NCBI GenBank assembly: GCA_046563655.1
Contig: CM102285.1
Location: 3,100,001-3,164,000 of the forward strand
DNA from: Yuukianura sp. NJ FZ-2021
Lineage: Eukaryota
Direction: 5' to 3'
DNA length: 64,000 nucleotides
Shown one piece after another: positions 1,864-37,500 of the stretch; the first letter of the stretch is position 1; each line of letters starts with the position of its first letter. The notes under the pieces are model-generated. The model did not search any database, had not been told where the DNA came from, and worked only from the letters and a program-made list of their open reading frames with translations. Both the position numbers and the translations under genes were made by a program.

Positions 1864-2419
1864 AAATGTAAGAAAAAGAGAAAACCAAAATTTGAGAAAT
1901 CTTTGTGACTTAACTTGCACGTGGGGAGTAGAAGAGTGGTATTTAGCTTAAACTATTTTGAAACCAAATAGACTTTTGTAAAATTTTGAACTTGACGTTT
2001 CGACCTTCCTGTTGTTGTCATATACAGTGTTTATTTTATATAATTATAAATAAATTTTAAATGAATTAATTTTGTTTGAAATTTTTCAAAAAAAGTAACA
2101 AGCAGTAATTTAAGCCTCATACTTATGTCAAAAAATTAGGTCAACGCACCAATAGTGATTTGGCGTGTGAATTTTTTACATAAAAATATTAAGATATTTT
2201 TTTTCAAACACATTTTTTGGCACACACGCACATTTTTTTTAAACACAGTAGGCTAATGATTTTTGACATCAAGGTTTTATCGAATTGCTCTCCATCACCT
2301 TCAAGTTAAATTTACACTTTGCAGCATTCTATGTGTCATCCATTGATTTTTGCCATTGCAAACAATATAATCTTTCCCCATTTCTTCCACTGCACAATGT
2401 AGGTCTGTTGCCTTTTTCC

Positions 2420-2433
2420 GTTTCCATGGCAAC
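2420..2433. promoter_or_regulatory. RFX X-box
   Basis: GTTTCCATGGCAAC matches the X-box consensus GTTNCCATGGNAAC, ~280 bp upstream of the kinesin-2 ATG. Confidence 0.75.
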
Positions 2434-2710
2434 ACCCCTTGCCTCTTGGGAACTGATGATCAACAGCAGGGAATTCACCCCCTCTTATTATGCATTGTCT
2501 TCACGTCCCAACTTTCTCCCTTTCTTGTCACTTTCTCTGGACTTCCACCGAAGTTTGTTCAATTCCGTTCACTTTAGTACCAGTTCATAGAAAGAAAGTT
2601 CCTCAATAAGCGAGCAAGGCGACACTCCTCGGTCAGTTAGTGTCCAGTATATTGGAAGAAATTGGAATTTTACATTTTGTCTCGAAATTTTGAAAAAAAT
2701 TGGAATTGGC

Positions 2711-16499: not shown

Positions 16500-18074
16500 A
16501 TTCGAATCTTCAATTCGAATTCAGTAAGGCAGAAAAATCAATTGTAGTACTCTTTAGCTGGGATGAGTATACATCTACACGTTAGTGTATGGTGTACTAC
16601 TATCATATTTGCCAAGCGGGCTAGATCTTACCTGGTTTTTGAATTATTCGCTCCGCGACATCACGACATGCTACTCTTGCTGTTCCTTCGTCTAAACTCA
16701 TCAGGAAGCCACTAGGTTTCAAACACAATATTTTAATAATTAATTTAACCTCATACAATGGACGTTTGGAGTTTTTCATTTACATGGACGTCGTCACATC
16801 AATGGGTGAAACCACTTCCAACGGGTTACGAGCACCACTCGTCAAAACTAAGTTCTAAAACATAAAGAGGAAATAAAATCTCAATCAGACCAATGCAAAG
16901 GAGCCTAGACCTTACCTAATAGCATTTAATACTTTGTAGCATCACTATACCTTGGTTCGTCTCACGCAAATGTCTTCAATAAGGGTATTAGCAGTATAGA
17001 GAAGGTTTTCTAGCGCGATATCGCCATGCTTGGCTGAAGCGTAAGTGAGTTCGAAGAATACTTCCTTTCCTGCCGCTAAATCTCCTTTCTGGCGATTGAA
17101 TTTGAGCTTCTGAATCCAGTGAGGTCCTGCATAGTCAAAACTAATGATGTCGAAGATCTGGGAAGATGTAAGAGATGCCTGAAAATTTCAGAGTTTTTTA
17201 GTATAGGTTTTGCGTCCGACTTTGGCTTAGCGAAGCTTTTTAGGTAGAATAGGCACAATAAATCATAAGAGTGACATTTTTTAATTAAATACGTTTAGCT
17301 AAATAATTTAATACGTAAAACCAGGCGGGTGTACGCTTTACCAGGAGGGCTTCGTTATTTGTTGGTAAAATGGCAATGATATCGAACAGCTTCGTCTTAG
17401 GTTGAGCAAGCTGTAATAGACGAACAAGCACTTATTTCATACTCAGTATCAACCTTCTCAATAAAAATTTTCCGGGAAATTGTTTTTCGTGACCTACCGC
17501 CTCTTGGAGTTGTTGCATATTACTGAAAATCAGGGTAATGCGCTGCAGTAAACGGACTCGGGGATGATCTGCGACGATTTGTTTGATCCATGCTAAACGC
17601 GGAGGTTCTGGCAGTCCATGTGCAGCAGATTCTGCGATGGAAACAGGAGTATCGTCGTTTCCAGATTTCCGCTTCCGTCCTCCCTTGTTACCGGAAATGT
17701 GTCCATTGTTGGTAACAATAAATGGCGTGTTAATTGCTAATGTCATGAATCCCACTGAAAATAAGTCCAGTTCAAAGGTGATAGTCGGAATCGGTAACAT
17801 GGTTTTCCCTGTTTAGAACTTAGAACGTAGCCAGGTATGGAGTTACCGGTGGCGAGATATACTAGCCTCACATCAGAAGCCTTTTCATAATTTCAGATGC
17901 TATTTCTCCAAGTTCCATGATTCCATGCCCATAGACATTTGACATTGGATGAGTACAGACGCAGAGTACAGCACTGTAATTTTGCAACTTACGTTTAATT
18001 GCAGCACGAGTAACAGCTTCACATTGTGGACCAATCGGTATATTGAGATCCGAGTATCCAACAGCCCTCTTCAT
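16500..18074 (-). pseudogene. Possible decayed multi-exon gene of unknown family
   Basis: Protein-like minus-strand segments (e.g. GGRKRKSGNDD...LRRLILSMK*VLVRLLQ, FELTYASAKHGDIALENLLY, VGFLMSLDEGTARVACRDVAERIIQKP) are bounded by plausible GT/AG sites but interrupted by stops and frame changes. Confidence 0.3.
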
Positions 18075-18662
18075 AATTATTTCTTATAATTCATAAATTG
18101 CCAATTACTTCCATAAAGAAATTTTTAGTTAGCTTTGTTTATCGGTATCGGTGTACTACTCGCACACACGTGCTTATTTCGATTAAACTAATCCGCTGAT
18201 TACACATACGCGATACGCATAATCAGAGGGGTTAACGAATCCACAGATTTCACATACATGACAGCTAAGCTGCGCAACAAGGAAGCATTCCCTTTCTTCT
18301 CGTGATGCATGGGTATATTTTGAAAATTGAAAAAATATGATGAACTTATTTCATTACTATATTAAATGTAATGCAAAATAAATTGGACGGAATACGTAAA
18401 ACGTAATAAATGAGATCGCAACACGGGACGATCCCATTAGAAGTGATCGCCTAACTTCAACCACTGAGTTCGCGAATCGCCTATGTCTGAGGAATCGTCA
18501 CTCAGCATCCGAGGTTTTTCTATTCCTATTCAATTCACACAAAAAATTAGTAAACTAGATAAACAATTTCTTCATCAATTACTGCTGAGCTGAGTATTAG
18601 CCAATATAAGTTAATTAAAGTTGTGTTTCATCGTCGTCGTTCCATTGTGAGTCTTTGTAAAG

Positions 18663-21600
18663 ATGGACTCCGAGGAGCTGGAAATGTGCTGGCGGAATCA
18701 TAATCAGACACTCCCACCACTGTTTGACTTCCTGCTTTCCAGTAACACATTCGTTGACGTCACATTGGCTTGTGATGGAAAGCAGCTACATGCCCACAGA
18801 CTTGTTCTTGCAGCATGCAGCGATTATTTACAGGTTTTAATATAATATTTACTATGTAGTTGTATGGCTCACACTCACACCTCAATTAAACTAACTGAAC
18901 TGAAAGTCGATTCGTTGACCCCATTCTAAATTCTCAATCTTTAGGAACTCTTACTTGACAATAAGAATCCTCATCCAATTATCTACCTGAAGGATGTCAA
19001 GTATTCGCATATGACGGCTCTTCTGTCACACATGTACCGTGGCCAGTTCAGAATTCCCAAAGAAGAACTTCCTGAACTGATACGAGTCGCAGAAGGGCTC
19101 AAAATACGAGGAATTCAAGAAATGGTAGACACGTCGTTTTTAGATGCACCCAACATCAATGCTACATCGACACTCCCTCTTCCAAACAATTCCGACCAGA
19201 ATCCGGGGAGTTCGTCCGCTCCATTAACGCTAGGCGATGGGGCAGATGAGATTCCACTCTTATTTTACACTGAGCTGCTGCAAAATTCTGATATGCATGA
19301 ACTTCTCGCTGGCAAAATCACTCAGTGCCTGGATTCTAAAAACGCAAGTAAGCCAAGCTTATCTTTTGAATTTTACGTAGTCAGTCGAGAGTGTAATTCA
19401 CGTTGCGCTAGCTCCTGGTCTGATCATGTAACTTTCTTTAGCAGCTCAAGGCGACGAGGTGGTAAAAGCTGTGAGTTCAATTGCGGAAAAGGAAATTGTC
19501 GACGCTTTCTTCAAGGACTTTTTTGAAATTGAGTTGGGAGAAGTGCAACCATCAGTTGAAAGTAATACAAATGTGCAATGTCAATTTTCTCCTCGTGCTA
19601 ATCAAACCAATCCGCAACCCAATACACCGATGATGACTCCACCTTCGCACCATGAATCAGAAACTGTACTGCTTGTAGCGAACGAAGATACGAATTTAGA
19701 GGAAACTTGCAGTACTATTCCTCTAATGACGACGGGGGACGTAGAAACAGTTTCTGTTGCTACAGAAGTGGTTTCACCTCCGGAGCCAAGCTCAGGCACA
19801 CAGAAGATTCCACACTCTCCGACTGCCACAGCATCAACGAAAAGAATGGTGAGATAATTTCTATTATTTCGTTCTTATTTCTTTAATCTTACATTGTACC
19901 TTGTCTATAGCGGACGGTATTTACTGTTTTGTACGATGACACGAAGAGCGAGGAGGGTGGTGCTGAAGTGAAGCATAGCATGAGGTCAACACCATTTCAG
20001 ACTTTGAAAAGGAAAAGAACACCGAGCGAAGCTATGAAAAACTACAAAAAACCGTGGCTAGTATCTTCTATAAAAAATGAAACTTACCCAATTGTCATCG
20101 ATACGGATACCTGGGCTAGTGTGGGGCGAAGATCTATCAGCCCGAAGTTTATTGATACTGAAATCGCAGCAGATAAAGGACTCCAGTTGTTGACAAAACC
20201 AAACGTCGGCATTGAGCGGGCGACGGTTTTAGCACGTAACTTCAAGGCGGACGTGGGGAATGAGTGTTCAACGTTTTTCACGGGTAACTCCAAGCCCGAC
20301 GACATCGGCATGGAGCGTTCAACGGTTATAGCAACTACCTTCAAGCCTAACGTCGAAAACCAACGTTCAGATACAACCGTTGTAATAAGTAACTCCAATT
20401 TTACCTCGACAAGTGAGACGACTCCTGTTCTTGCGGTGTCAAATACTAGTACCACGGAATTTTTAAACACGAGCAACACCAAACCTCTAGACATGGCCTC
20501 CAACACTTTTGGTCTACTTTCATTGACAGATTCAGAAAATCCTTTACCTGCTTCTGCAATGAAATCTCCACTTATCACACAAACACCTTCGTTTTCCCCA
20601 CCCTCACTGACGACGCCTCTGAAGAACAGTCAGAGTAGTGTCACTGGCACAAACAAATGCGAAGAACCATTACCTCCTACTACACCTCCAACATCCACTG
20701 GGAAACTGTCGACATCTCGTCGTCGATGTTTGAGTCGTATTTTAATTAACAAGGTACACACTATGCTGGAGGCCGAGGATAACCCATCGACATCCACGAC
20801 GGAATTACATGTCACTCCGACGGCACTGACGTCCTTAGAAAAATCAACGACCGACGAAAGTTTAAGAGTATCACGAAGAAAAAGTTACAGTACTCCACGC
20901 AAACGTTCTCAACACGTCAGGAACTTGTGTTTCAAAACTCCACCTAGTGCTCGAGATACTGGCAACAGTAATTCCACTCATCAGTTACCAGCATTTCAGG
21001 AGAGGCGGAGTAACAGAGAGCTGGACTTTGGAATGCCAAACATTTCCAGCACACCTATCTTGAAAACAATCCCGGAGACTAGTTTTGAGGTTGAGGTGAC
21101 TCCATATTCGTTCGAGAAGTCAAGCGTCTCATCTCCGGTAAAACAAAATCTTTGGGTTCCTCCCGCGACTCCGAGAATTTTATCACCGAAAACTCGTCAG
21201 CGACTATTTGGGTCCCCTCTCTTGCAACGTCCTCCGATACAAAAATCATCTGCTGAGCCTGCGCGTGATCCGAGCTACATCAACACACTGCGGAGACTTC
21301 TTGGGAGTCCGCTTGCACCAGGAGTATTGCCAAGTACGCCTGGAAGAACGAAAACCCCTGCCGACATTCAGTTGGATAATTCTAGGTAAAACTTGAATTT
21401 GAAGTTCGTTTCAACGGAACTACTAATCGTGAAATCATCCAACTAATTTTTACTCAAATTTTTTAAATTCTAGCGGAGAAACGACGCTGGACCCGAAGCC
21501 GATGCCTATTCCGGATGCTTTAGCTTTCCCAAAGCCGATACCAAAGCTTAATTTGGATGTTTCGCCGAAGCCAATGCCCAATCTGGATGCCTTCCCGAAG

Positions 21601-21918
21601 CCAACGCCATTGTCTACGTTTGACTCTTTTCAGAAGCCGAAACCAATGCCTCTTCCTAAGCTGAAACCAATGCCTTCGTTGGCTCCTCTTGCTAGGCCGA
21701 GGTTGGGTCCTCTCCCGAACTTAATTCCGAAGTCAGACACTCGTCCACACACCTTGTTTCGAAGAGGTTCCCGACAAAAGTTAATATCAGCATCGTCAAG
21801 AACAACTTTAGTTTCATTTGACTCTACTTTAAGAAGAAAGCCGAGTTCCGACGCAGAAGCAAAGACACTTGATGCTCCATCTTCACAAGTCCGCACTTCT
21901 TTCAAAAATGAAGATTGA
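18663..21918 (+). CDS. BTB/POZ (Tramtrack/bric-a-brac type) protein with long S/T/P-rich tail, no visible zinc finger
   Basis: Exon 18663-18833 CWRNHN...FVDVTLACDGKQLHAHRLVLAACSDY; exon from 18945 HPIIYLKDV...LLSHMYRG...LIRVAEGLKIRG; further exons ~19444-19850, 19911-21384 and 21474-21918. Confidence 0.85.
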
Positions 21919-23026
21919 TGCGGTGTAGTCTTCATCTGGTTTCTGGTTTGGGTTTAAGCTAAAACCGAATCATACGTGTAACTTACTTGTATATATTACT
22001 TATTTAGCTTGTATTAATTTCTTACATTAGATTAATAAGTACTGTAATGTGTGTACGGACACGGAGTCTTCAATTATTTGTGTAGTGTATATACCGCTCT
22101 TCTTTTCACGTACTCGGCGCGGTTTTGGTTTTGTTGTTATGTTTGTATATGATGATGGTTAATTTTTGTCAGGATAGATTTTACGGAGGGGCTTTTTAGA
22201 TTAGATTTACCTTAGATTTCTTATTAATTTAGGAACGAAAGTGTACGTGTTATATTGCTTTAGTAAAAAGTTTGACCGGACAAAATATCGACTCCACACT
22301 CCAGACGTCCAGACTAACAAGGAGTGATATGATGATGATGAGGATGACGCATCATCATCACATGCCCATAGGAATCGTTTTACTTCGGTTGCAAAGCGTT
22401 CCATGAGAAACAGTTTAAAGTTTAATAATGCTTTTGCTTTTCCTGAACAACTTGAAGCATTTTTGCATACCTTTTACGAAATGTTAACTTTGGTAACCTA
22501 AATTTGAGAAATTAAAATGCACTTAAATCCCTCGTCATGCTGTCATTGATTGACATAGACGGAATTGTGCGCTTTAATAATAAAGCTGTTTACCACAATT
22601 GTCTGCTCTTCGTGTTCCGTTAAAAAAAAGTCATGTTTAGAAGGAGGTCATTTGAAAGTTAATCCTACGTGGACGTCTACATAGGCTTTGGCTTTTGTGT
22701 GTTTTTCTTTAGAAGGCAAATTATATTGGAAGGGAGAATAAAATCATTATTTTTCAGATTCATGAACGCTAGGCACGAAAATTATGAGGGTAAAAATGGC
22801 ACAGAACAATAAATTTAATACATGAAGTGCGTACAAATATGTTGCAAAGTAAAGTTGAAATAAATGTGTTACTTCTCAAGTCAACAAATTTTTGAATGTT
22901 GGGGTTCATATTTTCAGACTTATAGAAATATACTTACCGTATTACAGAAACAAGCCCGCGTTGCATTCGTTACTATTAGGAGCGTTGATTTAAGATATGT
23001 AGTTTCATTTTCACATTGTTTGTGGA

Positions 23027-23290
23027 TATGTTGTGGCTATGTTGTGACTATGTTGTGGCTACGTTTTGACTGTTGTGACTGTTGTGGCTATGTTGTAACT
23101 ATGTTGTGGCTACGTTTTGACTATGTTGTGACTGTTGTGGCTATGTTGTGGCTATGTTGTGACTATGTTGTGGCTATGTTGTGGCTATGTTGCGGCTATG
23201 TTGTGGCTATGTTGTGACTATATTGTGGCTATGTTGTGACTATGTTGTGACTATGTTGTGGCTATGTGGTGACTATGTTGTGACTATGTT
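23027..23290. repeat. 11-bp minisatellite (G[G/A]CTATGTTGT)n
   Basis: Roughly two dozen near-perfect tandem copies are directly visible. Confidence 0.95.
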
Positions 23291-24069
23291 TGAAAATTTT
23301 ATAAAGAAAAATTATGCCAACACTACATGGACACTTGGTAAACGATTTGTGCATGACAAATAGTATAAAATTTGCAAAAATGCCACTTTTTTGGCATAAT
23401 CATAGAATATTTTGCTGAATATTTTTTATATTTTTTTTCAAGAAATATGTTTTTTAAAAGGTAAAAATATGTAATATGTAAGAAAATATGTTTTGCGCCT
23501 CTGTGTATTAATCGAGCAAGACTTTCTATTACTAGGACTGCTAACACGGGAGAATGAAGAAGCTGATTTTGCATTATATTTTAACCAAAAAACTTACCTG
23601 ATACTTTTGAACAATCACCCGTAGTTTGAATATCATCTAATCATATAAAATAAATAAAATAAATAATAAAATAAAAAATAATCATCTAAATTGAATAAAC
23701 AAATTGAAATGTTAAGGACGATACTTACTAAAATTTTCACTTCTGGAAATACACAAACAGAAAGTTTTGAGAACCACTTTTAAACACGCTGTTCAAGTTG
23801 TCTTGAAGCGTTTGTTTTTAGTTGCCCGATTTACTTTTAAGTTGCATTTTAGAACATATACGAATTGGTCTGCTATTCCCCTCATATGGTTGTAAATACC
23901 CTCGAAGAATAGGCACTTTCGGCTTCATATCGTCACAAAGACGACTACGTTAGCAACAACAAGTGGTTGTTTTGGTTTTGGTTATGTTTTTCTGCAGTTC
24001 TGGATCTGGTCTCAGATGCAGTATTTTCCTCCATGGAAATAATACGTAAATTTTTAACAGCTCTTTTTT

Positions 24070-24377
24070 TCAGTCGTTGGTGTTATTCATCTTAATTTTT
24101 TCACTGCTGTAATTATTTTACAAATTATATTTTATAAATCCTGTTTAAAGAAGTAAGCTACAGCGAAGCGTCAAACTTGTGCTATTTAGTATAAATCAAT
24201 GTCGTTGTGCTTTTTTTTTTAATTTTGACAGTACATTAGATTACTGCGCATGCATGGTTTGGATTTGGAAAACGCTTTTTAAAAACAACTTTACAAATAA
24301 TATCACTCAAAGTTGTCTTAATAAGTATAACATGGCTTCTGGATTGCGGTTATGATTAATATTTGTTTTTTTAACAG
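24070..24377 (+). promoter_or_regulatory. Putative Inr and 5'-UTR intron of the RdRP gene
   Basis: TCAGTC at 24070-24075, GTAAGC donor at 24153, and a T-rich tract plus ACAG acceptor ending 24377, 28 nt before the ATG. Confidence 0.45.
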
Positions 24378-24405
24378 TATTGGCTGATTATCTAACCAAC
24401 CGGAA

Positions 24406-26934
24406 ATGGGGCCGCCATTGATTAAAATCATTTTATCAAATCAGGATGACGATGTGTATGGAATATTTGACCGGAACGGTTCGGGAGCTGTCGGGCAGCC
24501 GCGGGAGTTCGTACTTTCAGTTGAGTGTGATTATAATCCCAGAACTGGTGGTCTTACGACAAGCGTTTCGCCTCTGGAGTACAAAGGAGTCGAAAATCGG
24601 GTAACCACTAATCATGGCGGGCCAGCGAATTTTATTCACGTATCTTTCCAACGGCTGAGTCAAGCAGGATTTGCTCAAAAGCAATTCAATGCCGAAAAGA
24701 AGATTGAGGAGATACTGACGTCTGGAATAACTGTCCAACATCAAGATGAAATACGCACGTTCATCTTTTGTGGACACAGCAACAGCCAGTTGAAAAGTCG
24801 AAGCTGCTTTTTCTACAAAGCAGAGTGTGCTAACGATGTCACTGGGATCTTAACCGGATTCGGGAACTTTGCTCAAATCAAAACTGTAGAAAAGTATGTC
24901 AAGAGAATCGGACTCTTATTTTCTAAATCAACTGTGGATACACAACTTCAACCAGAGATGACATTGGACATTCCAGACGTTGAAAGAAATGGCCATATTT
25001 TCACTGATGGATGTGGACTCATTTCTACATCATTTGCCAAAACTCTGACCGCGCTAATCGGGAAAGAGAAAAACGATCTTCCAAAGAACTACATTCCAAG
25101 CGTCTTTCAAATTCGATACAAAGGATATAAAGGAATCTTGATGGTGGTCTCCAATGAATTCATCCACGATCAGGCAATCTCAAATCAAAGCCTAATTTCC
25201 AAGATTTGGCGAAGTATTGGCGGTACTGGCAGGATAGTTTTGTTTCGAAACTCGATGAAGAAGTTTGAAGGGTGTCCAGATAATACGTTTGCAGTTTTGG
25301 ATTACTCGAAACCATATTTTGCTGGAGCTCTAAATGCAGAAATTGTTAACTTGCTTTCAAGTAATGGCATTCCAAATGATGTTTTACTCAAGAAACAAGG
25401 GCGGTACTTGAACTATATCCGCAGTGTGGATTACGATAACCGGGAAAGTGTCGTCCAGTTTTTGAAGTTGGTGCGTCGCTACGATCTGGTTGCGAAACTT
25501 GCAGCAGTTGAAGATATACAGTACATTCCTACTTGGATCAAAGGCAAGGTTCAAGAAATGAAACGTCAAGAGTTGTCCAAGTCACTCGATGTCAGTGGAA
25601 TGGCGCGCGTTCATATTCAAATTCCAAATTCCCGCCTTTTGTTAGGCGTTTGCGACGTTTCTGGAAAACTACTCGAGGGGCAATGCTACGTTCGAATTCT
25701 CTCAACAGACTTGACGCATAGCATTCCCATAAGCGGGCAGGTCATAGTGACTAGGAATCCATGTCTTTTCCCCGGAGACATTCAACACTTCATTGCTCAA
25801 GGTAACATTCCAGAATTGGCTCACTTGTCTGACTGCATTGTGTTTAGTACTCAGGGGAAAATGCCGGCAGCATCTACTCTAAGTGGTGGTGACTTGGATG
25901 GAGACAAGTTCTATGTTTCTTGGGATCCTGATTTAATCAAAATGGAATCCAAGGGGGCCCTGGACTACTCTTTATTGGCTCCTCGAACTACTGTTGTTCC
26001 TTCTATCACTTGGGAAATGAGGGTTATGTACTTTGCTCACTATGCAACTTCACTGGGCAACATAATATCACTTTACTGGAAATGGACCAATGCCCGTCCG
26101 ACACAGAGAGCCAACTGCTCCGAGTGCAAACAACTTAGCAAATTGTATGCAAGATGCGTCGATGGTGAGAAAGTCCAAATCCCAAAGGCATTACGCAACC
26201 CGCCGCCCAGCACCAATGATGCTGATATTCTGAAAGTACTGAAACAAAACATCAAGGACATTGTGTTTGGGACGGGAAGAAATTTTCATGACTTTCTTAA
26301 TGCGACTGATGTCATTCCCGAGAGCTTGCCACATGGCGACATTCAAGGCGACGAGCCGTTTCTACAAGATCCTCCTCAACCCGGGAGCAAACGGCAACTT
26401 ATCAACAGAAGTTTAACTGCAATTCGTCAGTTCATATTCACTTTTGGAGTTTGGATGATGCTGCTGTCAATCCCGGGTGTACTATCATGTTATTGGAATT
26501 TGGAGACCATGCGGGAGGTTGGCGGCAGTATACTTTTGGTTGTGGGCGATACAATTGAACAGGTTTTGCTTACGAGGGTAGACGACACAACCATTGGCAG
26601 ATGGATGATACTTTTTGTGGTCATTTGTAGTTGCATTTATGGCCTTGCTATACATGTGACAAAATGGCTGAAGGACTCTGTTAGGGCCTTGGAAATAAGA
26701 ATTCTTGGACATCATTGGAGGCGTGGCTGGATTGGCAAGACGTTCAGATTTGTGAAGAGACTGCTTGTTCAGATTTTCGGCAGAAGAAGGAATTTGGCCA
26801 GATATACCAATGCTCAAGTTGGACAGCGTTTCTACAACTCAGCATCTGTGTATGATGATTTGAACGATTTTATAAACAAATATCAACTACTTCCAATAAT
26901 AACCTTTGCGTTGCTTACCTACCTATTAGGTTAA
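24406..26934 (+). CDS. Cellular RNA-dependent RNA polymerase (RdRP/RDR family), intronless CDS, with hydrophobic C-terminal extension
   Basis: 842-aa ORF with GHSNSQLKSRSC, KRIGLLFS, FTDGCGLIS, PSVFQIRYKGYKG, SRLLLGVCD, VTRNPCLFPGD, and the catalytic SGGDLDGDKFYVSWD (DLDGD at 25891-25905). Confidence 0.95.
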   Translation: MGPPLIKIILSNQDDDVYGIFDRNGSGAVGQPREFVLSVECDYNPRTGGLTTSVSPLEYKGVENRVTTNHGGPANFIHVSFQRLSQAGFAQKQFNAEKKIEEILTSGITVQHQDEIRTFIFCGHSNSQLKSRSCFFYKAECANDVTGILTGFGNFAQIKTVEKYVKRIGLLFSKSTVDTQLQPEMTLDIPDVERNGHIFTDGCGLISTSFAKTLTALIGKEKNDLPKNYIPSVFQIRYKGYKGILMVVSNEFIHDQAISNQSLISKIWRSIGGTGRIVLFRNSMKKFEGCPDNTFAVLDYSKPYFAGALNAEIVNLLSSNGIPNDVLLKKQGRYLNYIRSVDYDNRESVVQFLKLVRRYDLVAKLAAVEDIQYIPTWIKGKVQEMKRQELSKSLDVSGMARVHIQIPNSRLLLGVCDVSGKLLEGQCYVRILSTDLTHSIPISGQVIVTRNPCLFPGDIQHFIAQGNIPELAHLSDCIVFSTQGKMPAASTLSGGDLDGDKFYVSWDPDLIKMESKGALDYSLLAPRTTVVPSITWEMRVMYFAHYATSLGNIISLYWKWTNARPTQRANCSECKQLSKLYARCVDGEKVQIPKALRNPPPSTNDADILKVLKQNIKDIVFGTGRNFHDFLNATDVIPESLPHGDIQGDEPFLQDPPQPGSKRQLINRSLTAIRQFIFTFGVWMMLLSIPGVLSCYWNLETMREVGGSILLVVGDTIEQVLLTRVDDTTIGRWMILFVVICSCIYGLAIHVTKWLKDSVRALEIRILGHHWRRGWIGKTFRFVKRLLVQIFGRRRNLARYTNAQVGQRFYNSASVYDDLNDFINKYQLLPIITFALLTYLLG

Positions 26935-27832
26935 CTCCAGAAAACGGTTTAATGTCCCTCGCAAATTGTTCGTTGGCGGTCGGACGTAAGAAATAATAAT
27001 AGTCAATATTTGGTAAATTACTACTTCAGATATTTGTACATTAATTAGCTATTGACTTAAATAGTAACATCTACTTTACGATAATATACGATACATACGA
27101 TATATTACAAGAATATATTAGAACATATACTATAATATGCACGACATTTGCACTATAATATTTACGACATATACTACATACAATATGAACGACATATTCC
27201 ACAAAATTCACGATATGTATTATCTAGATATAATAGTTATAAATGATCATATCATTGAAAATAGTAACGCATCATAAAAAACTGAAATTATTCTAAAAAA
27301 AAAGATATGGCACACAACTTAAGGCGGCAGTGCCTACTTACGGAAGGAAAATGATAAGCGGCGGTTATGGCATGGCTTCGAGAGGATCTCCCACCGTAAT
27401 TGTCTGTTTGAAATTACAATGTTGTGTACACATTTTTCAAAATTATATTTAAAAAGAAATGTAGATAATAATACACAAAATTTGGTAGTTTTGGGTAGTG
27501 GGTTTCTTCCATCTCGTCATAGTACTACTTGGATGAGTTTTTTTTTCAAACATTCACCAAATTAGATATAATATCTTGAGCGCACAATTTTTTTTATAGC
27601 TTTTCAAAATTTTTGTAGAATACTACAATCAGTCGAAATCTGACTGATAACTTTTTTTTAGATTATTTTTAGTTAAGTTGTAATTAGTTAGGTTGTATTT
27701 GGATTAATCATTAATGAAACCAGGAATATACTTTAATAGAAAGGTACTTTATTAATATATACTTGCAAGTATTTACAAATTGAAAGGTCGAGTCAATCCT
27801 TTCTTACGACAGACGTAAGTTCTACGAAACAA

Positions 27833-28007
27833 GGGAATTTCCCAAGGATTTGTTTTCTCGTCAGCGCATTATAACGACAAATTGTTGCAAGATTGAGATT
27901 GACACATTTCCTTGAATGCGTTAGAAGATTCATTAGAAATGCGTTAATTTCAAACTAAAAGTAAGAATTAGGGAACTCTATGTTGCACGAGTTAAATCAT
28001 ATAAATA
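27833..28007 (+). promoter_or_regulatory. NF-kB-type site and TATA box upstream of the secreted peptide gene
   Basis: GGGAATTTCCC at 27833-27843 and TATAAATA at 28000-28007. Weaker kB-like sites occur at 27971 (GGGAACTCTA) and ~28049 (GGGAAAGTTC). Confidence 0.65.
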
Positions 28008-28093
28008 GTTTGATGCTAGTTGTGCTAGGCATCACTTCTCAATTAACTGGGAAAGTTCGGAGATACTTGTGGAAACTAAAGGTTACAGTCAAA

Positions 28094-28417
28094 ATGAAGT
28101 CGGTGTTGCTTGTTGCATTCGTCTCCTGCTGTCTGCTGGTTTGTTTCCCGGGTCAAAGTTCAGCAATGTGGAAGAACGCTGCAAAGAATCTTGGAAATGC
28201 CGCCAAGAACGTCGGTGACCAAAGTTCTCTTCAAAGTACTCTGCAGAATGGATATGACCAGGCCAAAAATCCACAACAAACTCCACAAACTACTGGAAAG
28301 GTGATGGGCCTACTCGCTCAGCAACGTCAACAATCACAGCAACCGGCACAGTCTTCGTCGCAGGCTCAACCGAAGGGACATTCTATCACAAAATTCCTTG
28401 GAGGAGGTGGGAAGTGA
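28094..28417 (+). CDS. Small secreted Gln-rich peptide (107 aa), candidate immune effector
   Basis: AAAATG start, signal peptide MKSVLLVAFVSCCLLVCFPGQSSA, TATA upstream and AATAAA at 28527. Confidence 0.8.
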   Translation: MKSVLLVAFVSCCLLVCFPGQSSAMWKNAAKNLGNAAKNVGDQSSLQSTLQNGYDQAKNPQQTPQTTGKVMGLLAQQRQQSQQPAQSSSQAQPKGHSITKFLGGGGK

Positions 28418-28833
28418 TTTTGGCGGGAAACTAAACTTAGGTTCAAAATATTTCATGTTCGTATCAAATACGTTGAAATTGGCATTGTACGTTTAACTTT
28501 GAATCAATTGGTTGACGCTTTGAATTAATAAAACATTTTGGAAATTTATCCAGTCAGTAGTATGATGACGACAGTTTATAAAATTTCAGTTTACGTCGGT
28601 TTTCTTAGAACATTTCTTCATTTGAAATGATTTTTGATGAAACTGCGAAATGACTCAAGTTCATGATACTACCACAACCACATCCCCAAGTTTCCAGCGT
28701 TGTCCTGGTTTGCTCAATTTCCTTTCTTCATTTAAGCATTTAACGTTAGTTTCATATATCATTCAACCGAATTTTGCAAGAAAAGGTTTGAAAAAATTAA
28801 CGGTTTGGTTTGTTGAATTAAAGTTTGGAAACA

Positions 28834-29301
28834 ATGGTTAGATTCTACTTTGAACGAATTTCAATATTCTTGATTCTTTTGATTCCACTAACGCTGGGTG
28901 AAAACGCGGGAGGATTCGGATCTTACGGCTCAATTTGCGACCGGGACCAACAGTGCAACACCAACGCTTACTTGATCTGCGACTCTCAGAAGCGGCAGTG
29001 CGAGTGCTTTAGTTCTTACGGAGAAGTATTTGAAGGAGGGAAATGTCGTCATAAGCCCGATGTGAGGTGCGTCATAGCCGAGGATCGCTGCACGGAGCAC
29101 GCGGAGTGCGTGGATGAAGGTGATGGATCTGGACAACGATCGACCAGAGGATCATGCACATGCACCAAGCGATCAGTGTACGATAGACGAGCTGAAAAGT
29201 GTATTAGTGTGGCTACGTCCTCCACAATTTCAAATTTGAAATTCCCACTGTTGCTGCAATTATTCCTCTGCTCAAAACTATTTTTTGTTTTAATTAAATA
29301 A
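28834..29301 (+). CDS. Intronless secreted/GPI-type cysteine-rich protein, paralog of the 1243 gene
   Basis: Signal-like ISIFLILLIPLTLG, C-x5-C-x7-C-x6-C-x-C module plus a second Cys module, and a hydrophobic C-terminus. Confidence 0.8.
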   Translation: MVRFYFERISIFLILLIPLTLGENAGGFGSYGSICDRDQQCNTNAYLICDSQKRQCECFSSYGEVFEGGKCRHKPDVRCVIAEDRCTEHAECVDEGDGSGQRSTRGSCTCTKRSVYDRRAEKCISVATSSTISNLKFPLLLQLFLCSKLFFVLIK

Positions 29302-29515
29302 ACTAAAACGGCGATTAAAGAACAGGCAAATCAAAACTGTTTCAAGTCATATCAAGTTGGCATTTCAAGTCATATTCGGCGGTAGTTCATTGAGTAAAGC
29401 AGTTTAATTAAGTTGGGTCCGATAATCTGAACGTATTATTATGACAAAGGCCATAACGTTAGCAAAAGTAAATAACATAAGTAGTACAAGGGCGCTGGCT
29501 TTCCTGAATTGCGGT

Positions 29516-29857
29516 TTAGGTCATAGTACAGGTATAGGTAAATCCTAAATAACCTCCAAGACATGCACCGGCAACGGCTAGAATGAGCAATATGTAGAAA
29601 TAGCAGCATGGACATCCTCCAGCTCCAGCACTTTGAGTATAGGCGAAACTGCTTCCGGCCCTAACGTTACCAATATTAGATTGGCAGCATGCCGCCATCG
29701 ACCCTTTGGCGATACCACAGCAAGTGAAGCCAAGGATGGTGAGAGCAATCGGAACCAGAATAACCATGGCTATGGCTCCACCGAGCATGCTTAGAATCCA
29801 GATTCCGATTCTTTCAAAAGCCCAACTCCAGTGCCATGGGAGAAACGAACCGGACAT
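29516..29857 (-). CDS. IFI27/IFI6 (ISG12 motif) family small membrane protein
   Basis: LGFTCCGIAKGSMAACCQSNIGNVRAGSSFAYTQSAGAGG matches the ISG12 pattern GFT..GIA.GS.AA...S...G.V.AGS..A..QS.GA.G and is flanked by hydrophobic segments. A probable 5'-UTR intron lies at ~29861-29939. Confidence 0.85.
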   Translation of the reverse strand: MSGSFLPWHWSWAFERIGIWILSMLGGAIAMVILVPIALTILGFTCCGIAKGSMAACCQSNIGNVRAGSSFAYTQSAGAGGCPCCYFYILLILAVAGACLGGYLGFTYTCTMT

Positions 29858-30272
29858 ATCTGGAATGCAAGAAACGAATAGCTCATGAGTTTGATTGCTA
29901 TAACAATATGTTAACTATTTTTAGCGTTTCTTAATTCACCAGCTGAGCGAGTAGCCCGTGTTGCGTGCCAAACACAGAAGCCTTGAAACTACTACAAAAC
30001 GGGCCTACCAGTGGAAATCTTCAATTTCAATTTCATTTCCATTTCAATTTTATTTCATTTCGCGAGTCTAACGTTAACTAATGACTTTGCTAACTTTTAA
30101 CTATCCCACCCACCGGCCAATATATATTGTTGGATAATTAGTGTTTAATGACACTAACTCCCTAGTTAGTGTCATAAACCCTCCATTCCGAAAGGTAAGG
30201 ATTATGCGTACAGGGCAACAGTTATTATTCTGTACTTATGTTTCATATCTTACCAACGTAGCGAACGCATCC

Positions 30273-30420
30273 GGAAACTGTTTCGTTCCAAATCGAAACT
30301 GTTTCATTCCAAACTGAATTCGAAACTGGTCCATTCCAAATCGAAACCGTTTCATTACTAATTGAATTTGAAACCGAAAGTGTCTGGTTCCAAACAGCTA
30401 CCGTTCCATTCCAAACCGCC
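30273..30420. repeat. Degenerate ~21-bp tandem repeat (GAAACTGTTTCATTCCAAATC-like)
   Basis: About six imperfect copies are visible. Confidence 0.7.
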
Positions 30421-30939
30421 GCCATATTAAGTAGATGTAGGGGAGACATTCTTCCGAGAGAGATCTGAAAAATTCAACCAACTTTAGCTGAGAACAGAAT
30501 CCTCGATAGGATCCGATCAGGAAAAGCCGAGGCCGAGCAAAAACAAAATGATACACGTTATTGAAGTGGAACACAGTTTAACTAAGCTTTACAAATAATT
30601 TACTAACCTTTTATTGTATTTGTTCAGTCACGATAATGATCAAATAAAATAACAATAAGAAATGAGACGAAACGGAAGCTGGCACGACACGGAGACGAAT
30701 GGGGGAGGACACTTGAAATAAAGCAATGAACAAACAATAGGTAGTAATTTCGGTTGAGGTAAACTTTAACGACCGTCATTGTAGCGGGAAATTTTAGCCA
30801 CTCCGCGGCTACAATAAGCGGCTATACCCACAGGCACAAGGTATACACCGTGAGGCAAACGTAATGTTGGCGCTTTGTTATGTTTTTATTCTAGCTAAAC
30901 CGGACCTTACGACCTTACCTAATTTGTACCCACTACATA

Positions 30940-31056
30940 CAGGGTGGCCCGGTGAAGTCCTTACCCAAGTGAAAGAAAGAGAAACTCTCACATGAGTTTC
31001 TTATGACAATAGTGAGAGGAAAAGAAAGAGGGTAAGGACTTCACCGGGCCACCCTG
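30940..31056. mobile_element. Tc1/mariner-type MITE (117 bp)
   Basis: Perfect 27-bp TIRs CAGGGTGGCCCGGTGAAGTCCTTACCC, flanked by TA on both sides. Confidence 0.92.
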
Positions 31057-31536
31057 TACAAAATATAATACTATAAAATATCGGCGACCGCAGCTTTGTT
31101 ACATTAGCATTTGCTAAAATTTTACCCCAATCCATATTTATTAACAGAAGACTCTGAGCTTGCAACACATTGTGATTGCTTGGTTTAGAATTAGATGAAT
31201 TATGAATTTAATACTGTCTAAACCGTCCTTTCAATCTGTTATACTGTTTTTTTTTTTTAAATAAAGTAAGAATTCTGCAGTTTGCATTTGAAGGATTCCA
31301 TTTCTCTATTTTTGTTTGAAAAGAATGTATTCACACTTAGAATTTTACAAGTTTTATTGGCGGAACTGAAGTGTATAGCCGGAAAGTAAGTTTTTAAAAC
31401 ATTGGTTACATAATAAAGTTAGCTACAATAGCTGTTCTGTCATCAAGATGAGAAGTTTACATGTTGTGGGGCGTAAAGTCTAAAGATCCCCAAGGAGTGT
31501 GATTGGTAGTGATTTACGATTCAAAGAATTTAGTCA

Positions 31537-34500
31537 TCATTGATCTGCCGCATGTCTTTTTAGCATGATGACTGAACCTGCAGCATGCGAAGGTTGGCTT
31601 GGCGTTGGCGCAGGGTGCGGACCTTGCGCCATTTGTGGCATGATGACAGGAACTGAGCCATACATAGGTTGATTTATGTTCGGTACTGGCGGGGGGATTG
31701 GAGGTCGACCATAAAAAGATTGACCTGGCGCCAATGATGCATTGTCCACTTGCCCGTCTGAACCAATCATTTGGTAACGAATGTTATCTGTGACTGGCCG
31801 CTGTGGACTTGAATTCGGGTTGTACGGTGTCGGTAAAACAAGCGGATCATTCCACATAGGTTGTGGTGGTGGCACACCCTGCTGCATCATATTCATAACG
31901 GGTTGATCCGGTGTAACGGCTTGATCTTTCAAGAAGACGCAGAGAGCGCTGGAGTCTCGCGCCAAAAGTGTTCTAGTTTCTCCGAATTCCTTGACTGCTC
32001 CTTTCTCCATTACAATAATATGAGTGCACGCTCGAATTGTTGCGTTCGAGCTGGTAACGATTAGAGTTGTTCGCTTTTTAAAAACATTGTCCAACGTTGT
32101 CAACAACACCTGTTATATAAATCTTTTTTTTACATTAAAGTTTTGAAACATAACTCAAACTCAGAATTTTTAAGAATTTATGTTCACCTTCTCCTCTTCT
32201 GCATCCAGTAGAGCCATGATGTCTTCAAGTAATAATAGTTGCGGCGGTGACCTGCATACAATATGAGCAAGATTGTCGTATTTCCTTAATTGGAATTGAT
32301 TTAGTACTATTACCGACATTACATCACGTTGATCATAATCATAAGTATACCAGTTTTACCTAATGATTGCCCGAGCAATAGCAATGGCTTGTCTTTGAGT
32401 CGGGTTTAAGTTCTTTCCGTTTTCTCCACACTTCGTATTGAAGCCCTAAATTTCATACGATTTAAGCGTTGAAATTAAACCAATGATGTGATGTTGGATT
32501 TAGTTTTTATACGCTTTATCATTTTAGAAAAGAAGTTAGAAAATGTGCTTACTTCTGGTAGTTCGTCAATGAATTTCTTTAAATTCGCATCTGTCGCAGC
32601 ACGTTGAATTAAATCATGCAAACCCGTCATGTCGCCATGGTAGCCAAATTTAATGTTATCGTCTACGGTGATGTCAAACAATTTTGGTTCAGATGGAACA
32701 TAGCCAATGTTGCTTCTGAGATGTTTTATACTCCAATCCCGTACATCAATGCCATCTACTTTCTAATAGCAGAAAGTTTACATTGCAAAGCTTGCTTCTG
32801 GCATAATTTAAATTCCGATTTTTAACGACGACTCAATTTATGTTCTTACCACCCAACCAGTTTGAGCATCGCAGAATCGCAGCAATAACGCTAGAATTGT
32901 TGTCTGTCCACTTCCTGGAGGACCCACTGCAAATTAAGTACAATATGAAATGCACATAGCTATGCATAGAATTTATTTATAAAGTACGTGAGACTATTAG
33001 ATTTTACTGGATTTAAGCTTCACTACGTAGCTCACCGATTCCAACTAAGCTTTTTGCGGGGATTCTGAAAGTTGCATTCTTCAGTTCGGTTTCGTCATTA
33101 AGGGGATCCTTAAACCACACGCTTTGGAACTCCACTTCGCCGTTAAACGCTCCTTTACTATGTTTGAAGTCATCTGCTGAATCAGTTAGAGGTTTTAGGT
33201 CAATCAGGCTAAAAATGGCGTCTCCGGAACTTTTAGCCTTGAAAAACTCTGGAATGAAGCTTGTTGCTTGTCCGACGCTTAGGATTCCAAAAGTAAGGAC
33301 GAAGAAAATGCTAGAAACAATGACACAAATGCCAATGAGGTTGCATTGTTGTAAATTTGACGTTCAAAGAGACGTACGAAAACAAGTCAGACACGGCGAG
33401 AATTCCATGTCGAAGCAACTCTGCTCCAACCGAGAACGCAGCTCCAAATATGAAGAACATGAAGCATTCTGAGGTAGCGTACACCAGTGAGTACCATACA
33501 GCTCTATTATAACCGTCGCTAAACATATAATATACTACATATATTTGCATGTACATATAATATACCCAACCTCTGTCTACCTTTTAATATTATATGTATG
33601 TGTAATATATTATTAGTTATGCTAATACGTTAATTAAGTTAAAGTTGTTGAAGGCTTAAACTTACAGAAGCGCAGGGTAGAGAAACTTTTCCGCTTGTAC
33701 ACAACCTGCATATGCGTCACACTTTGTCTGAATGGCCTCAATTCCATTGATTAAAGAAGTGGTAAGCTATGATACACCATAGTAAATACAAATTAAATTC
33801 AAATCAACACTAATTACGTTACGTTATGAACTACGTTACGTAGTTGAATTTATTTTCATTAGAGTAGACACGTTTCGTACCCGTAAGACTTCTAATACTT
33901 TTAGGTTATACGGGGCAAATTATGTATATTACAAATTTTTGTACACTGTTGTGTACAAAAATTTGCATAGCAGTGTGTTATCAGACAAAGCCATAACGTT
34001 AAAACAATAAATATTTTCAGCGACTAAACGCAAATTCTTATTATTACAAATTTGTATGAAGAAATCATAAGCTGTTACTTACATCCACAATTCCTTGTCG
34101 ATTTGCAAATAGTTTAACTTGTGAGCCCTTCAGAACACGAGCAAGTGTGGAGAAGCAAGACACAAGAATTGGAATTGTCAAAAACGCCACAGCAGCAATT
34201 TCCCAACTGAAGAATAGTGTAATCACAAGCCCAGTGATCAACGTCATAATGGCATTCACAGCAGTTGCCAACCGAGGACCCATCGCCTAGAATACAGGAG
34301 TCAAAATATTCTCAACTACGCAGGTATCAAATCTAGTGAAAAATTATAATCATAATTGACAATTTTTTACTAACGTTTTTAATAACAGGTACATCCGAAG
34401 ACAAGCGGGTATACAGACCTCCAGGGGAATTTTCTTTGTTTTCAAACCAGCGTACGTGCTGTTGTAGAATAGAGTTGTAGCTGGCAATGCGTAGGCGTGA

Positions 34501-37500
34501 TCCAAGGTCTTCGGCAAAATAACCGGTGAAAATATTTCTAATGGCAAAGCCAACGGCCGCCAATGTAGCTAATCCCAACAGCACCTCCACCCAGTTAATT
34601 CCGGACGACAACAAATTTTGTCTTGGTCCAATAAACAACTACAAGCATAAACTTTCTACAGGTTTTGCAACGTTTGAGCAACATTCATAATGTGTTAGGC
34701 TTACATCCAGAATTTGACCCAAAGAAAGCGCTAGAAGCGGTATAACTAGACCACTCAGTATGCATCCAACTATTCCGAGGTACCACAATCTTCTTGACTC
34801 AAATGGCATCAGTTTTAGTAATTTCCGGATAAAGGCCATGGAATCGAATATATTTTTCATGGATGCTCCCATTAGTACTTGAAACCGGTCAACAGTTTCG
34901 TCTTCATCCCTCTCTGTTTCTACACGATAAACTAATTGAGTTGGAAACATCTTGTTAAAGTCACCACAGATCCGTCTCAGTTCCTCAGGAGTGCCTTTCT
35001 CTGTCACGCATCCATTCTATTAAAAACATGTGTCAAAGAAACTAATGTGGATTAGCGTGGTATGGAAATGCATTAAATGTAAAACAGACAATTACTAATA
35101 AGAAAAAAAAACATTTTTGACTTTAGTAAGAAGAATCGACCAAATTTCACCTTCAAAAAATAAATGTAGTCGCATGATTCAAATACTTCTGGGGGTTTGT
35201 AGTCGACAACAATGGTAGCAGTGGTGGTTTGTCGGCATTTTTTCAAAGTTTGAAGAATTTTACATGCATCGCTAAGTTTAAGTGCTGACAAGGCTTCACG
35301 CAAGATGAGTACTTTGGGTTTCGAGATAATGCACTTCGCTATAAGAATTTTGATTCTGAAACAAAAATAGAACGAACCGTAATTAGATCAGTAAAGATTA
35401 GATTTGTATCCAGCTAATTAAGGTTCAAATTGATCTTTGAATGATATCTACATTTACACAGTTTTTACAGTTTGTTTTATACGACGACTAAAAGTAGAGT
35501 GCCTTACCGCACATCCAACGGAAACAGTGCTGACGCGGTGGAGTCATATTTCTAAGAAACGTTCAGGTAGTTTGTATTATTATATGTACCACAGTTATCC
35601 AATATCAATGTACGGTGCAAGTTGCAGAAGCGCTTTACATACTATCTATATATATGTAAGATCTATATATGTATATAATTGGACGATAGTATAAATTTAA
35701 CTTACATTGTCGAGCCCTGCTATGTATTTGTCGAGCAAGACAATTTGAGCGGCCTTCTCAACATCGTGGAAGGTGACATTTTTATTAAAAGAACGAATGT
35801 TTTCAAATATTGTCGTGTTAGCCAGCGTCTAGAAATGTGGAACAAAATTTAGCAAGAGATTTTCTAACAATTGTTTTTAAAATTTGTTGTGTCGTGTTAC
35901 ACTATTTCGGTCCACAACGGCAAACTGCTTACGAACCCATCGCACATTCTATTACACGATTTATATATAACAAAACGTATTAATACCACATACCAAAATT
36001 CTGTTATGAGACAAAGGCATAAACAATTGTAACGCACCATGGTGGTTATATCGTGTTCATCAAGTTTGATTACACCGGATTGTGGATCATATAAGCGCAG
36101 CATGAGTCTGACGAGTGCGCTTTTTCCAGCTCCGTTTTTCCCGACGATCGCTGCATTTATTTTGGGCATAGTAAGTTGGTTATTCCCGGGCTTTCCTTAT
36201 ATGTTTTCACTAAAAAATTTTATGCGTAAAACATTTACCAAAAAGCCCTTTCCCTGGTACTTCAAAATTCAATTCGTTGAGGACCAGTTTCTCCGCCATG
36301 GTCGGGTAAGCAAAAGCTACGTTGCTGAAGTTAATTTTTCCAGTAAAGCCTTTTGGACACAAACCTGTAATGGCAATGGCAATAAATCTAGGTAGAGATT
36401 GTGGCAAATATATTTCATGCGGTGTAACTATAAGAATCATCTTGTATAAAAATTTACCGCTGTTGCAGAGTGGTGATATACAACAAGTGTTGTACTTTTT
36501 ACAGTTACGTCAAATTAAGTTCAAGGAAAACCTACCTGATGTGCTGTATGGATCAATTTCAGGTATTGAATCCAAAACAGTTCCTACAAGTCGGTATGAC
36601 GAATAAGCTGAAGCGATTTCACTCAGGTTGGGCAGTAGTGAGAAAATGGCAAATACAGAAATTGTGAGACTAAAGAAAACTGTGTAAATTTCTCCTGGAC
36701 TGATGACGCCTTCGTGCAAAAGGTTGACTGCGTACCAGAGTGCGACTGCGTAGAAGACGTAAATCAAGAAGTACATTCCACCAGTACCAAGTCCAATTAT
36801 AACTTCTTTGTGTTTGGCAGCCGCGGTTCCATACGATAGTGCTTTCTCGTATCGCTCTAACTCTCCTCTCTCTTCACCAAAAGCAGCTACAGCCTGTATA
36901 TTCCTTATCCCTTCAACACAGATTTTTCCGGCTATGACACTTTGTTGTTGTGCTTCAGTTGATGCATTGCTCATTTTCTAGTTTTCAAATAAAGTTAAGT
37001 TTTTAAAAGTTTTTTTAAAGTTTTTAATTTTTAAAAAAATCTAGAATTTTGAAAGTTCAACTTACTTTCCAGACAAGCATTAGCTTTGTGAATACAAGTG
37101 GCGCTGATCCTAGCAACACCAAGGTCAGTTTTGTGTTGGTGAGGAGACCGATTCCGGCACCAAAAAGTGCAATTATGCTGTACTCAATTACAAGCACAAA
37201 TTTTTGACCAACTCCTTCACGAAATCGTTCACAGTCACTGGAAAAATCAAAAGATATAAATTTAACACTACACACTTATAGTATTTATGCAAGAAAAAAA
37301 ATTTGGGTTTTCTTTTTAAAGATGAACATTTTCCCGAGTTTCAAATTTCAAATTTCGTCAACTTTGTCGCGTAATTTCTTACTCTGTCATTTTCATAACA
37401 AGGTTTCCCACCGATCTAAAGCTGAACCACGACATTTCTTGCCTTTGCAGCTGATAGATATACTTTTGTCTGATTCGGTACAATTGGTTTTCAGCCATCC

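Follow-up and report, generated by a model that had tools for sequence, protein, structure and literature searches.

We analyzed a 64,000-nucleotide (nt) stretch of the genome of Yuukianura sp. NJ FZ-2021 (contig CM102285.1, positions 3,100,001 to 3,164,000; hereafter, the window) and found in it an intact gene for a cellular RNA-dependent RNA polymerase (RdRP). The gene is truly part of the animal genome, and sequence comparisons suggest that it was probably acquired from a fungus long ago. Taken as a whole, the reading that we favor and hold to be reasonably probable is an old fungus-to-animal transfer, after which the accompanying helicase would have been lost and a membrane tail gained, in an enzyme with catalytic RdRP function. 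Feature coordinates are collected in Table 1.

The RdRP coding region is a single exon of 842 codons, which starts with an ATG at 24406, ends with a TAA at 26934, and contains no internal stop. An earlier note made from the letters of the window had reported an uninterrupted 842-aa open reading frame (ORF) here, and the ORF listing and translation agreed with it in coordinates and length and gave the + strand. An in-frame TGA (24385-24387) is located six codons before the ATG, showing that the coding region is self-contained and excluding an upstream coding extension. The N terminus is colinear with that of the relative P0197, a metagenome fragment that likewise has an M-x-P start. Stop codons make up approximately 5.8% of random codons at this base composition, and simple arithmetic gives a probability of approximately 5e-7 for the 242 codons after the catalytic domain to be open. 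So long an open frame cannot be of chance origin. Just upstream of the ATG, a pyrimidine tract ending in AG is a possible 3' splice site of an intron in the 5' untranslated region (UTR). Rfam gave zero matches in the window at gathering thresholds. Retroposition of the gene was considered and rejected: no poly-A tract follows the stop codon, and the only direct repeats were two weak matches of 22-23 nt.

The encoded protein is a cellular RdRP according to its family (PF05183) and its predicted fold, which is of the RDR2/QDE-1 type. The PF05183 profile, which the earlier note had proposed as a check, matched residues 63-595 with an E value of 1.6e-100 (338 bits at a cut-off of 23.8; profile positions 16-538 of 582). 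The motif strings listed in that note, GHSNSQLKSRSC, YIPSVFQIRYKGYKG, and YFAHYATSLG...CKQLSKLYARCVDG, as well as the DLDGD loop, were each found in the translation. The loop (D496 to D500) corresponds to the DbDGD motif, which PMC6396948 describes as three Asp residues with b standing for a bulky residue. In a 40-sequence alignment (A3), residues G494, D496, L497, D498, G499, and D500 were nearly invariant, and of the 64 columns with a conservation of 90% or more, 61 have the consensus residue in the window RdRP.

An AlphaFold2 model based on the 40-sequence alignment had a mean pLDDT of 73, with block values mostly between 85 and 97 over residues ~100-620. When the model was searched with Foldseek, the best structures were maize RDR2 (E 4e-37, probability 1.00), Arabidopsis RDR2, and QDE-1 (3e-30), with E values ranging to 1e-29. 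Among solved structures compared by sequence, plant RDR2 was matched at an E value of about 3e-43 and QDE-1 was more distant. Judged by alignment and model, the core of the enzyme appears to be entirely intact. Plant RDR2 and Neurospora QDE-1 (7w84, 7eu0, 2j7n) share the catalytic loop and the fold predicted here, but they are only 18-26% identical to the window protein, have other N-terminal domains, and carry no membrane tail.

Database searches placed the protein among fungal enzymes. Organism names were available for 68 of the 120 best matches, drawn from 5.8 billion clustered proteins, and all 68 were fungi (Ascomycota, Basidiomycota, and one Glomeromycota; 33-43% identity). In many of the best 120, the RdRP domain is followed by a UPF1/DNA2-like superfamily 1 (SF1) helicase of the PF13086/PF13087 type. 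An exhaustive HMMER search of 1.84 billion representatives yielded 3809 proteins at E values up to 0.001. The best of them, P0002 (longer form, P0122), is encoded on a metagenome contig of 2350 bp and shares 43% identity with the window protein across 538 aligned positions. Short fragments had identities of 72% (P0135), 57% (P0173), and 48% (P0197) over the part they cover. Among the representatives, the chytrid Nowakowskiella belonged to the fungal group; Massospora, Modicella, and a plant fell into an outgroup clade, and amoebozoan and foraminiferan sequences were on isolated branches. Proteins of roughly 1600-2000 residues from Dreissena, Branchiostoma, Oscarella, and Ephydatia formed a separate group, which is taken to be the animal RdRP-helicase clade. 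The Atlas clusters nearest to the window protein were plant RDR3/4/5-like, cnidarian, and basidiomycete, a set of neighbors that would fit the metazoan gamma group.

For phylogenetic analysis, the window RdRP and P0122 were treated as the window clade. A FastTree phylogeny was built with 137 rows from 157 ids put forward (136 HMMER representatives, 5 top matches, and 16 named fungi) of 263 RdRP-family proteins. Rows covering fewer than 380 query positions were dropped, as were P0132, P0205, P0206, P0209, and P0215 with their split or repeated matches; the fragments P0135, P0173, and P0197 were left out of both trees. In this tree, the window clade (support 100) was part of a 35-row clade (99) together with all named Dikarya and the chytrid. 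A more careful IQ-TREE analysis used 64 rows, picked to cover every clade, and 532 columns under LG+C20+F+G4 with posterior mean site frequencies (PMSF), with ultrafast bootstrap and the Shimodaira-Hasegawa-like approximate likelihood ratio test (SH-aLRT) as support values. Support for the window clade itself was 100/100. It was nested in a clade of 23 rows made up of Ascomycota, Basidiomycota, and unnamed sequences (98/93), which, joined by the chytrids, formed a clade of 25 rows (100/95). Glomeromycota and an amoebozoan were located outside the 25-row clade, and the animal clade was separate. The immediate neighbors of the window clade were helicase-bearing environmental sequences.

Alternative placements were compared by approximately unbiased (AU) tests. 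Joining the window clade to the 21-row animal clade was rejected (delta lnL 62.8, p 0.00035). A clade of the 23 chytrid, Dikarya, and unnamed rows that lacks the window clade was retained (delta lnL 10.2, p 0.265). The same exclusion was rejected when the 2 Glomeromycota were added to these rows (delta lnL 37.0, p 0.0074) and when the amoebozoan row was added to the resulting 25 rows (delta lnL 38.7, p 0.0058). These outcomes favor a fungal lineage over an animal one. From the sequences compared, affiliation with the fungal rather than the animal RdRP lineage is well supported, and nesting within fungi is supported only via the Glomeromycota bracket. Nesting among animal RdRPs, which the earlier note had named as the outcome that would speak against horizontal transfer, was not recovered with the animal sequences that our searches returned.

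The window protein differs from its relatives in the C-terminal part. For its tail of 242 residues, Pfam gave nothing significant, and neither did BLASTP against the RdRP-family proteins P0002-P0263 and P0384-P0390 (best E value, 0.32). The GC content of the tail by codon position resembles that of the remainder of the gene, and AlphaFold2 modeled the tail as helical with pLDDT below 50. Hydropathy analysis revealed two candidate membrane helices and a tail-anchor-like segment at the C terminus (Table 1); an Arg/Lys-rich stretch separates the last two of these. Pfam detected no helicase domain (PF13086/PF13087) in the window protein. Neither a helicase remnant nor a separate helicase gene was found in the 64 kb, in which tblastn with eight helicase-bearing relatives matched only 24595-26286. 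Thus, the assignment in the earlier note to a fungal-type RdRP group usually fused to a helicase holds for the lineage, as seen from matches, tree, and AU tests, but not for the architecture of the window protein itself. Neither the missing helicase with the tail in its place nor the decayed relative described below had been mentioned in that note.

P0122, the closest full-length relative (656 residues), is also without a helicase and has one internal and one C-terminal hydrophobic segment, the latter at residues 636-654 (Kyte-Doolittle mean, 2.1-2.3). Helicase loss together with a hydrophobic tail appears to be a derived design shared by the two proteins. We infer that the catalytic domain would be cytosolic and tethered to an internal membrane via the tail. 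As judged from its sequence, a helicase-less RdRP with a membrane-anchor-like tail is a new architecture variant. No published report of a helicase-less, membrane-tailed RdRP was found in a literature search that was partly off-topic, and supplements may list such genes.

The gene resides in an animal genomic environment. Neighboring genes are split into many short exons, and the setting among intron-rich animal genes described in the earlier note was confirmed by multi-exon genes for a kinesin, a BTB protein, an ABC transporter, and a kinase. The kinase has Pkinase_C, Rho-binding, and PH pieces, a set typical of a ROCK-type kinase. Further genes of this kind encode an F-box protein and an AMP-binding acyl-CoA synthetase (three exons matched). 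The GC content of the RdRP ORF at the three codon positions (0.485/0.380/0.436) is within the range of neighboring exons, for which the third-position value (GC3) is 0.36-0.49. Its relative synonymous codon usage (RSCU) correlated with that of pooled host exons at r = 0.64, a value equal to that of host genes, which are themselves in the pool.

In addition, Logan contigs of four sequencing runs were inspected over positions 17501-37500. One sample, possibly the source of the window assembly, contributed three runs, and the fourth came from another organism and another study. Contig depth, a coarse measure, was similar across the RdRP ORF and its flanks in 4/4 runs. First-sample contigs cross from upstream noncoding DNA into the ORF (23835-25026 and 24003-24826). 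A contig of the other organism (26753-26939 and 27015-27176) continues from the 3' end of the ORF into the same noncoding DNA downstream, at roughly 90% identity. The earlier note had raised missing linkage to flanking genes as a concern. It is answered in part: contigs join the ORF to both flanking noncoding DNAs, but none among those listed extends from the ORF to a neighboring gene. The host-matching codon usage and the finding of the locus in a run of a second organism indicate that contamination is unlikely and that the acquisition is old.

Table 1. Features of the RdRP gene and of neighboring genes in the window
Feature	Coordinates	Strand	Evidence
RdRP coding region, 842 codons plus TAA	24406..26934	+	ORF listing, translation, upstream in-frame stop, colinearity with P0197
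Pyrimidine-rich stretch with a terminal AG, 28 nt before ATG; possible 3' splice site of an intron in the 5' UTR	24360..24377	+	Sequence inspection
PF05183 cellular RdRP domain	24592..26190	+	Pfam, AlphaFold2, Foldseek, conserved columns
Catalytic DbDGD loop, D496-L-D-G-D500	25891..25905	+	Translation; aligned to SGGDLDGD of plant RDR2
Tail, residues 601-842, in place of the middle region and SF1 helicase of relatives	26206..26931	+	Outside any known family
Hydrophobic segment 1, residues 676-694, candidate membrane helix	26431..26487	+	Kyte-Doolittle 19-residue mean 1.86
Hydrophobic segment 2, residues 734-752, candidate membrane helix	26605..26661	+	Kyte-Doolittle 19-residue mean 2.28
C-terminal hydrophobic segment, residues 827-841, tail-anchor-like	26884..26928	+	Kyte-Doolittle 15-residue mean 1.91
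Kinesin-II motor	3819-6094	+	Exon ORFs, Pfam
BTB protein	18651-21918	+	Exon ORFs, Pfam
Ifi-6-16 family protein	29516-29914	-	Pfam
ABC transporter	31537-37936	-	Pfam

The age of the gene was addressed using a decayed relative. A metagenome locus scan with a 2-sequence alignment returned 10 loci, of which L001, L002, L008, and L010 were inspected. Only L001 among these four belongs to the window RdRP's own clade; the ORF motifs of L002, L008, and L010 assign them to the helicase-bearing or fungal type. The remaining loci (L003-L007 and L009) are 28-31% identical to the window RdRP. L001, a metagenome contig of 3020 bp (positions 1-3020), is about 63% identical over 578 codons, and the protein fragment P0135 is a piece of it. 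In tblastn, L001 was matched in three pieces and three frames (66%, 53%, and 71% identity), corresponding to two frameshifts. In addition, an in-frame stop interrupts it near residue 380, and Arg replaces Gly at two almost invariant sites of the FTDGCG motif. L001 is a decayed copy. Between the window RdRP and L001, synonymous differences over the 578 shared codons were saturated (pS 0.81) and nonsynonymous differences were low (pN 0.23), indicating that the two lineages split long ago and that constraint acted on the protein during most of the period since then. From these comparisons, the RdRP gene family appears to be old in this organism group and to have been lost at least once.

The same metagenome contains, at L002 (1824-7875), a complete RdRP-helicase gene with short introns that is 36% identical to the window protein. 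It looks like the P0128-like helicase-bearing kind found near the window clade, and could possibly provide a view of the donor type.

Horizontal acquisition, as proposed in the earlier note, is still the best reading, given that grouping with animals was rejected, but the topology with the window clade as sister to chytrids plus Dikarya was retained. Several points weigh against the reading. Since the sister position survives the AU test, nesting within fungi rests on the Glomeromycota bracket. Nesting also presumes orthology of the fungal genes, and chytrids inside Glomeromycota conflict with the species tree. The nearest neighbors of the window clade (P0128, P0003/P0020, and P0124/P0131) lack taxon labels and need not be fungal, and their link to it is weak (59/79 and 80/97). 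The stem of the window clade is long (0.64 changes per column), only 4 of the 21 rows in the animal clade are named (Dreissena, Branchiostoma, Oscarella, and Ephydatia), and every AU group was set after inspection of the FastTree phylogeny. Membrane anchoring is based on hydropathy alone, with a low-confidence tail model. Furthermore, the two frameshifts, the stop, and the Gly changes in L001 show that the gene was dispensable in at least one lineage.

The main rival to transfer is the retention of an ancient paralogue. According to it, an opisthokont RdRP-helicase was inherited vertically, kept in fungi and in this lineage, and lost in nearly all other animals. The retained topology outside chytrids plus Dikarya is compatible with such a history, and the fully host-like composition is what is expected of an old resident. 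PMC6396948 reports poor support for the deep branches of RdRP trees and frequent loss of animal RdRPs; the same paper overturned an earlier claim of fungal transfer for the Strigamia RdRP (bioRxiv 10.1101/185694). We nevertheless consider vertical inheritance unlikely. Positions outside the bracket that includes Glomeromycota were rejected in both tests, and so was joining the animal RdRP-helicase clade. It would also need a duplication that predates animals and fungi, followed by loss in every named animal, none of which was near the window clade in the databases searched. Finally, the RdRP gene is intronless, whereas its neighbors are multi-exon.

Other explanations accept the gene's affiliation but not its function, or question its location. 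The gene could be a useless relic of transfer that is heading to decay, or it could serve a role unrelated to RNA silencing. L001, the closest relative with DNA, is broken, the helicase partner domain is lost, and PMC6396948 reports that no RdRP-dependent small RNAs were found in Branchiostoma despite intact genes. These observations are set against 842 open codons, the retention of the catalytic loop and of nearly all strongly conserved columns, a pN far under the saturated pS, and a tail-bearing design in common with P0122, which is only 43% identical; we regard this explanation as quite unlikely. It is very improbable that the gene is fungal DNA wrongly joined to animal sequence by contamination or misassembly. 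Such an error could be suspected where no listed contig spans from the ORF to a neighboring animal gene, where a minisatellite and a high-copy repeat are located about 0.9-1.4 kb upstream of the ORF, and where three of the four runs come from one sample, possibly the assembly source. However, codon usage and GC3 are those of host exons, ORF and flanks have similar contig depth in every run, and in the run from another study and organism, the end of the ORF is followed by the same DNA as in the window. In addition, the protein is atypical for fungi, with no helicase, a novel tail, and only 43% identity to the best named fungal match, and no further fungal-looking gene was found beside it.

Under the transfer reading, we propose the following course. 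The gene would have been transferred horizontally from a fungus to the host's ancestors a long time ago. After transfer, the helicase half would have been lost and a novel tail with about three membrane helices gained, while codon usage drifted towards that of the host and long purifying selection acted on the gene. In the cell, the N-terminal catalytic domain would face the cytosol and the tail would hold the protein on an internal membrane. Single-stranded RNA would be copied into complementary RNA at the DLDGD two-metal site, and the double-stranded or antisense RNA product may feed small-RNA silencing of transposons or viruses. The restored siRNA amplification suggested in the earlier note is likewise conjectural.

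The window RdRP can be compared with several known systems. Its RdRP domain is 33-43% identical to those of fungal RdRP-helicases (Lophiostoma, Alternaria, Serpula, and Nowakowskiella) and colinear with them from the N terminus; the motif strings listed in the earlier note are in common, and the tree grouping is strongly supported. In contrast to these enzymes, the window protein lacks the middle region of roughly 700-1100 residues and the PF13086/PF13087 helicase, has a hydrophobic tail instead, and is encoded in an animal genomic context. The animal RdRP-helicase clade belongs to the same Pfam family and has the same ancestral helicase-bearing architecture, but is only 25-33% identical to the window RdRP and forms a separate clade that the latter does not join. 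This animal clade probably corresponds to the group that Pinzon et al. 2019 (PMC6396948) call "metazoan gamma". In that paper, alpha, beta, and gamma animal RdRPs are distinguished, an AAA_12 domain is given for a Branchiostoma RdRP, vertical descent with frequent loss is advocated, and the Strigamia transfer is disputed.

The Strigamia maritima RdRP was proposed by Lewis et al. as a fungus-to-arthropod transfer (bioRxiv 10.1101/185694). The claim is of the same type as ours, namely that an animal has a cellular RdRP of fungal appearance that is missing from its relatives. It differs in that the animal-clade alternative was tested and rejected for the window RdRP. The Strigamia protein is not in our trees and is absent among the named best-120 matches, indicating that it is no close relative of the window RdRP. 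For bdelloid rotifers, Nowell et al. 2021 described the divergent RDR I and RDR II, for which PMC7943196 considers "an ancient HGT gain" as one explanation. These are likewise divergent animal RdRPs outside the main metazoan clades. They occur in large expansions, whereas the window RdRP is present as one copy in 64 kb, and no named rotifer was among the best 120 matches.

Comparisons of two host genes provided information on the host lineage. The kinesin exon 3819-5285 (+; 488 aa), the longest host exon, is 47-52% identical to proteins of named animals of many phyla and 52-69% identical to metagenome proteins. In a quick kinesin tree, the window sequence and 7 metagenome proteins formed an isolated clade inside the KIF3B group. 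The grouping with metagenome proteins only suggests that the host lineage is frequent in environmental data and that a close named genome is missing from the collection searched. The BTB domain, which is overall Tramtrack-like, is split over exons 18651-18845 and 18945-19526 (+). According to PMC11426971, FxLRWN is the N-terminal motif that defines arthropod-specific TTK-type BTB domains. At this site, exon 18651-18845 has LEMCWRNH, in which W and the following NH are kept and F, L, R, and N are changed. The Atlas clusters nearest to this N-terminal exon were labeled "commonest Chordata", with no arthropod signal, and a search of the exon against PDB sequences found nothing. The arthropod host named in the earlier note is thus a lead that these comparisons did not confirm.

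Several other elements of the window were observed. A minisatellite (22985-23319) that precedes the RdRP gene by about 1.1 kb is composed of 11-nt units (22 overlapping 77-nt copies). The contig depth of its bin was about 53,000 compared to about 200 nearby (run X1), indicating that the minisatellite unit, or an element next to it, occurs in very many copies genome-wide. In three runs, contig depth at 30174-31507, a segment flanked by the Ifi-6-16 and ABC transporter genes, was 5-15x the depth on either side, and many loose ends were seen at ~30750-30785; this segment is probably a dispersed repeat or a transposon fragment. A single-exon ORF of 237 aa at 50486-51199 (-) weakly matched the DNA/RNA non-specific endonuclease family PF13930 (E 2e-6, 28.5 bits at a cut-off of 27) and had the highest GC3 of the ORFs measured (0.53). 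Like the RdRP gene, it has no introns and may have come from a foreign source. The ORFs 1144-1863 (+) and 28825-29301 (+) have signal-peptide-like starts, similar cysteine spacing, and the motifs CKKDKDCDQSNFIGCDPVTRTCNC and CDRDQQCNTNAYLICDSQKRQCEC. Pfam gave no match for either of them, and they may represent a lineage-specific family of small secreted proteins.

To our knowledge, cellular RdRPs are generally held to pass only by vertical descent, and the single previous claim of a fungus-to-arthropod transfer, for Strigamia, was disputed. For the window RdRP, the vertical alternative, grouping with animal RdRPs, was directly tested and rejected, and several features speak for a long stay in the genome: codon usage like that of the host, synonymous differences from L001 that are saturated, and occurrence in a second organism. 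Literature searches on PF05183 and horizontal transfer and on RdRPs of fungal origin in small invertebrates revealed no report of this gene type; the results of the latter were mostly off-topic, and absence from print is not established by them. The broken L001 agrees with the frequent loss of RdRPs in animals reported in PMC6396948.

The swap of a helicase for a membrane anchor would point to an unstudied way of placing an RdRP in the cell. More tentatively, and with a good deal of doubt, we suggest that an environmentally common animal lineage, missing from collections of named genomes, could have domesticated a fungal RdRP as a membrane-tethered polymerase with a three-helix anchor, for antiviral or anti-transposon silencing at organelle surfaces. 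If this is true, the gene would encode the first membrane-anchored cellular RdRP and would represent a statistically supported fungus-to-animal crossing of a core RNAi enzyme. If the transfer itself is real, it would show that animals can regain an RNA-copying enzyme in this way.

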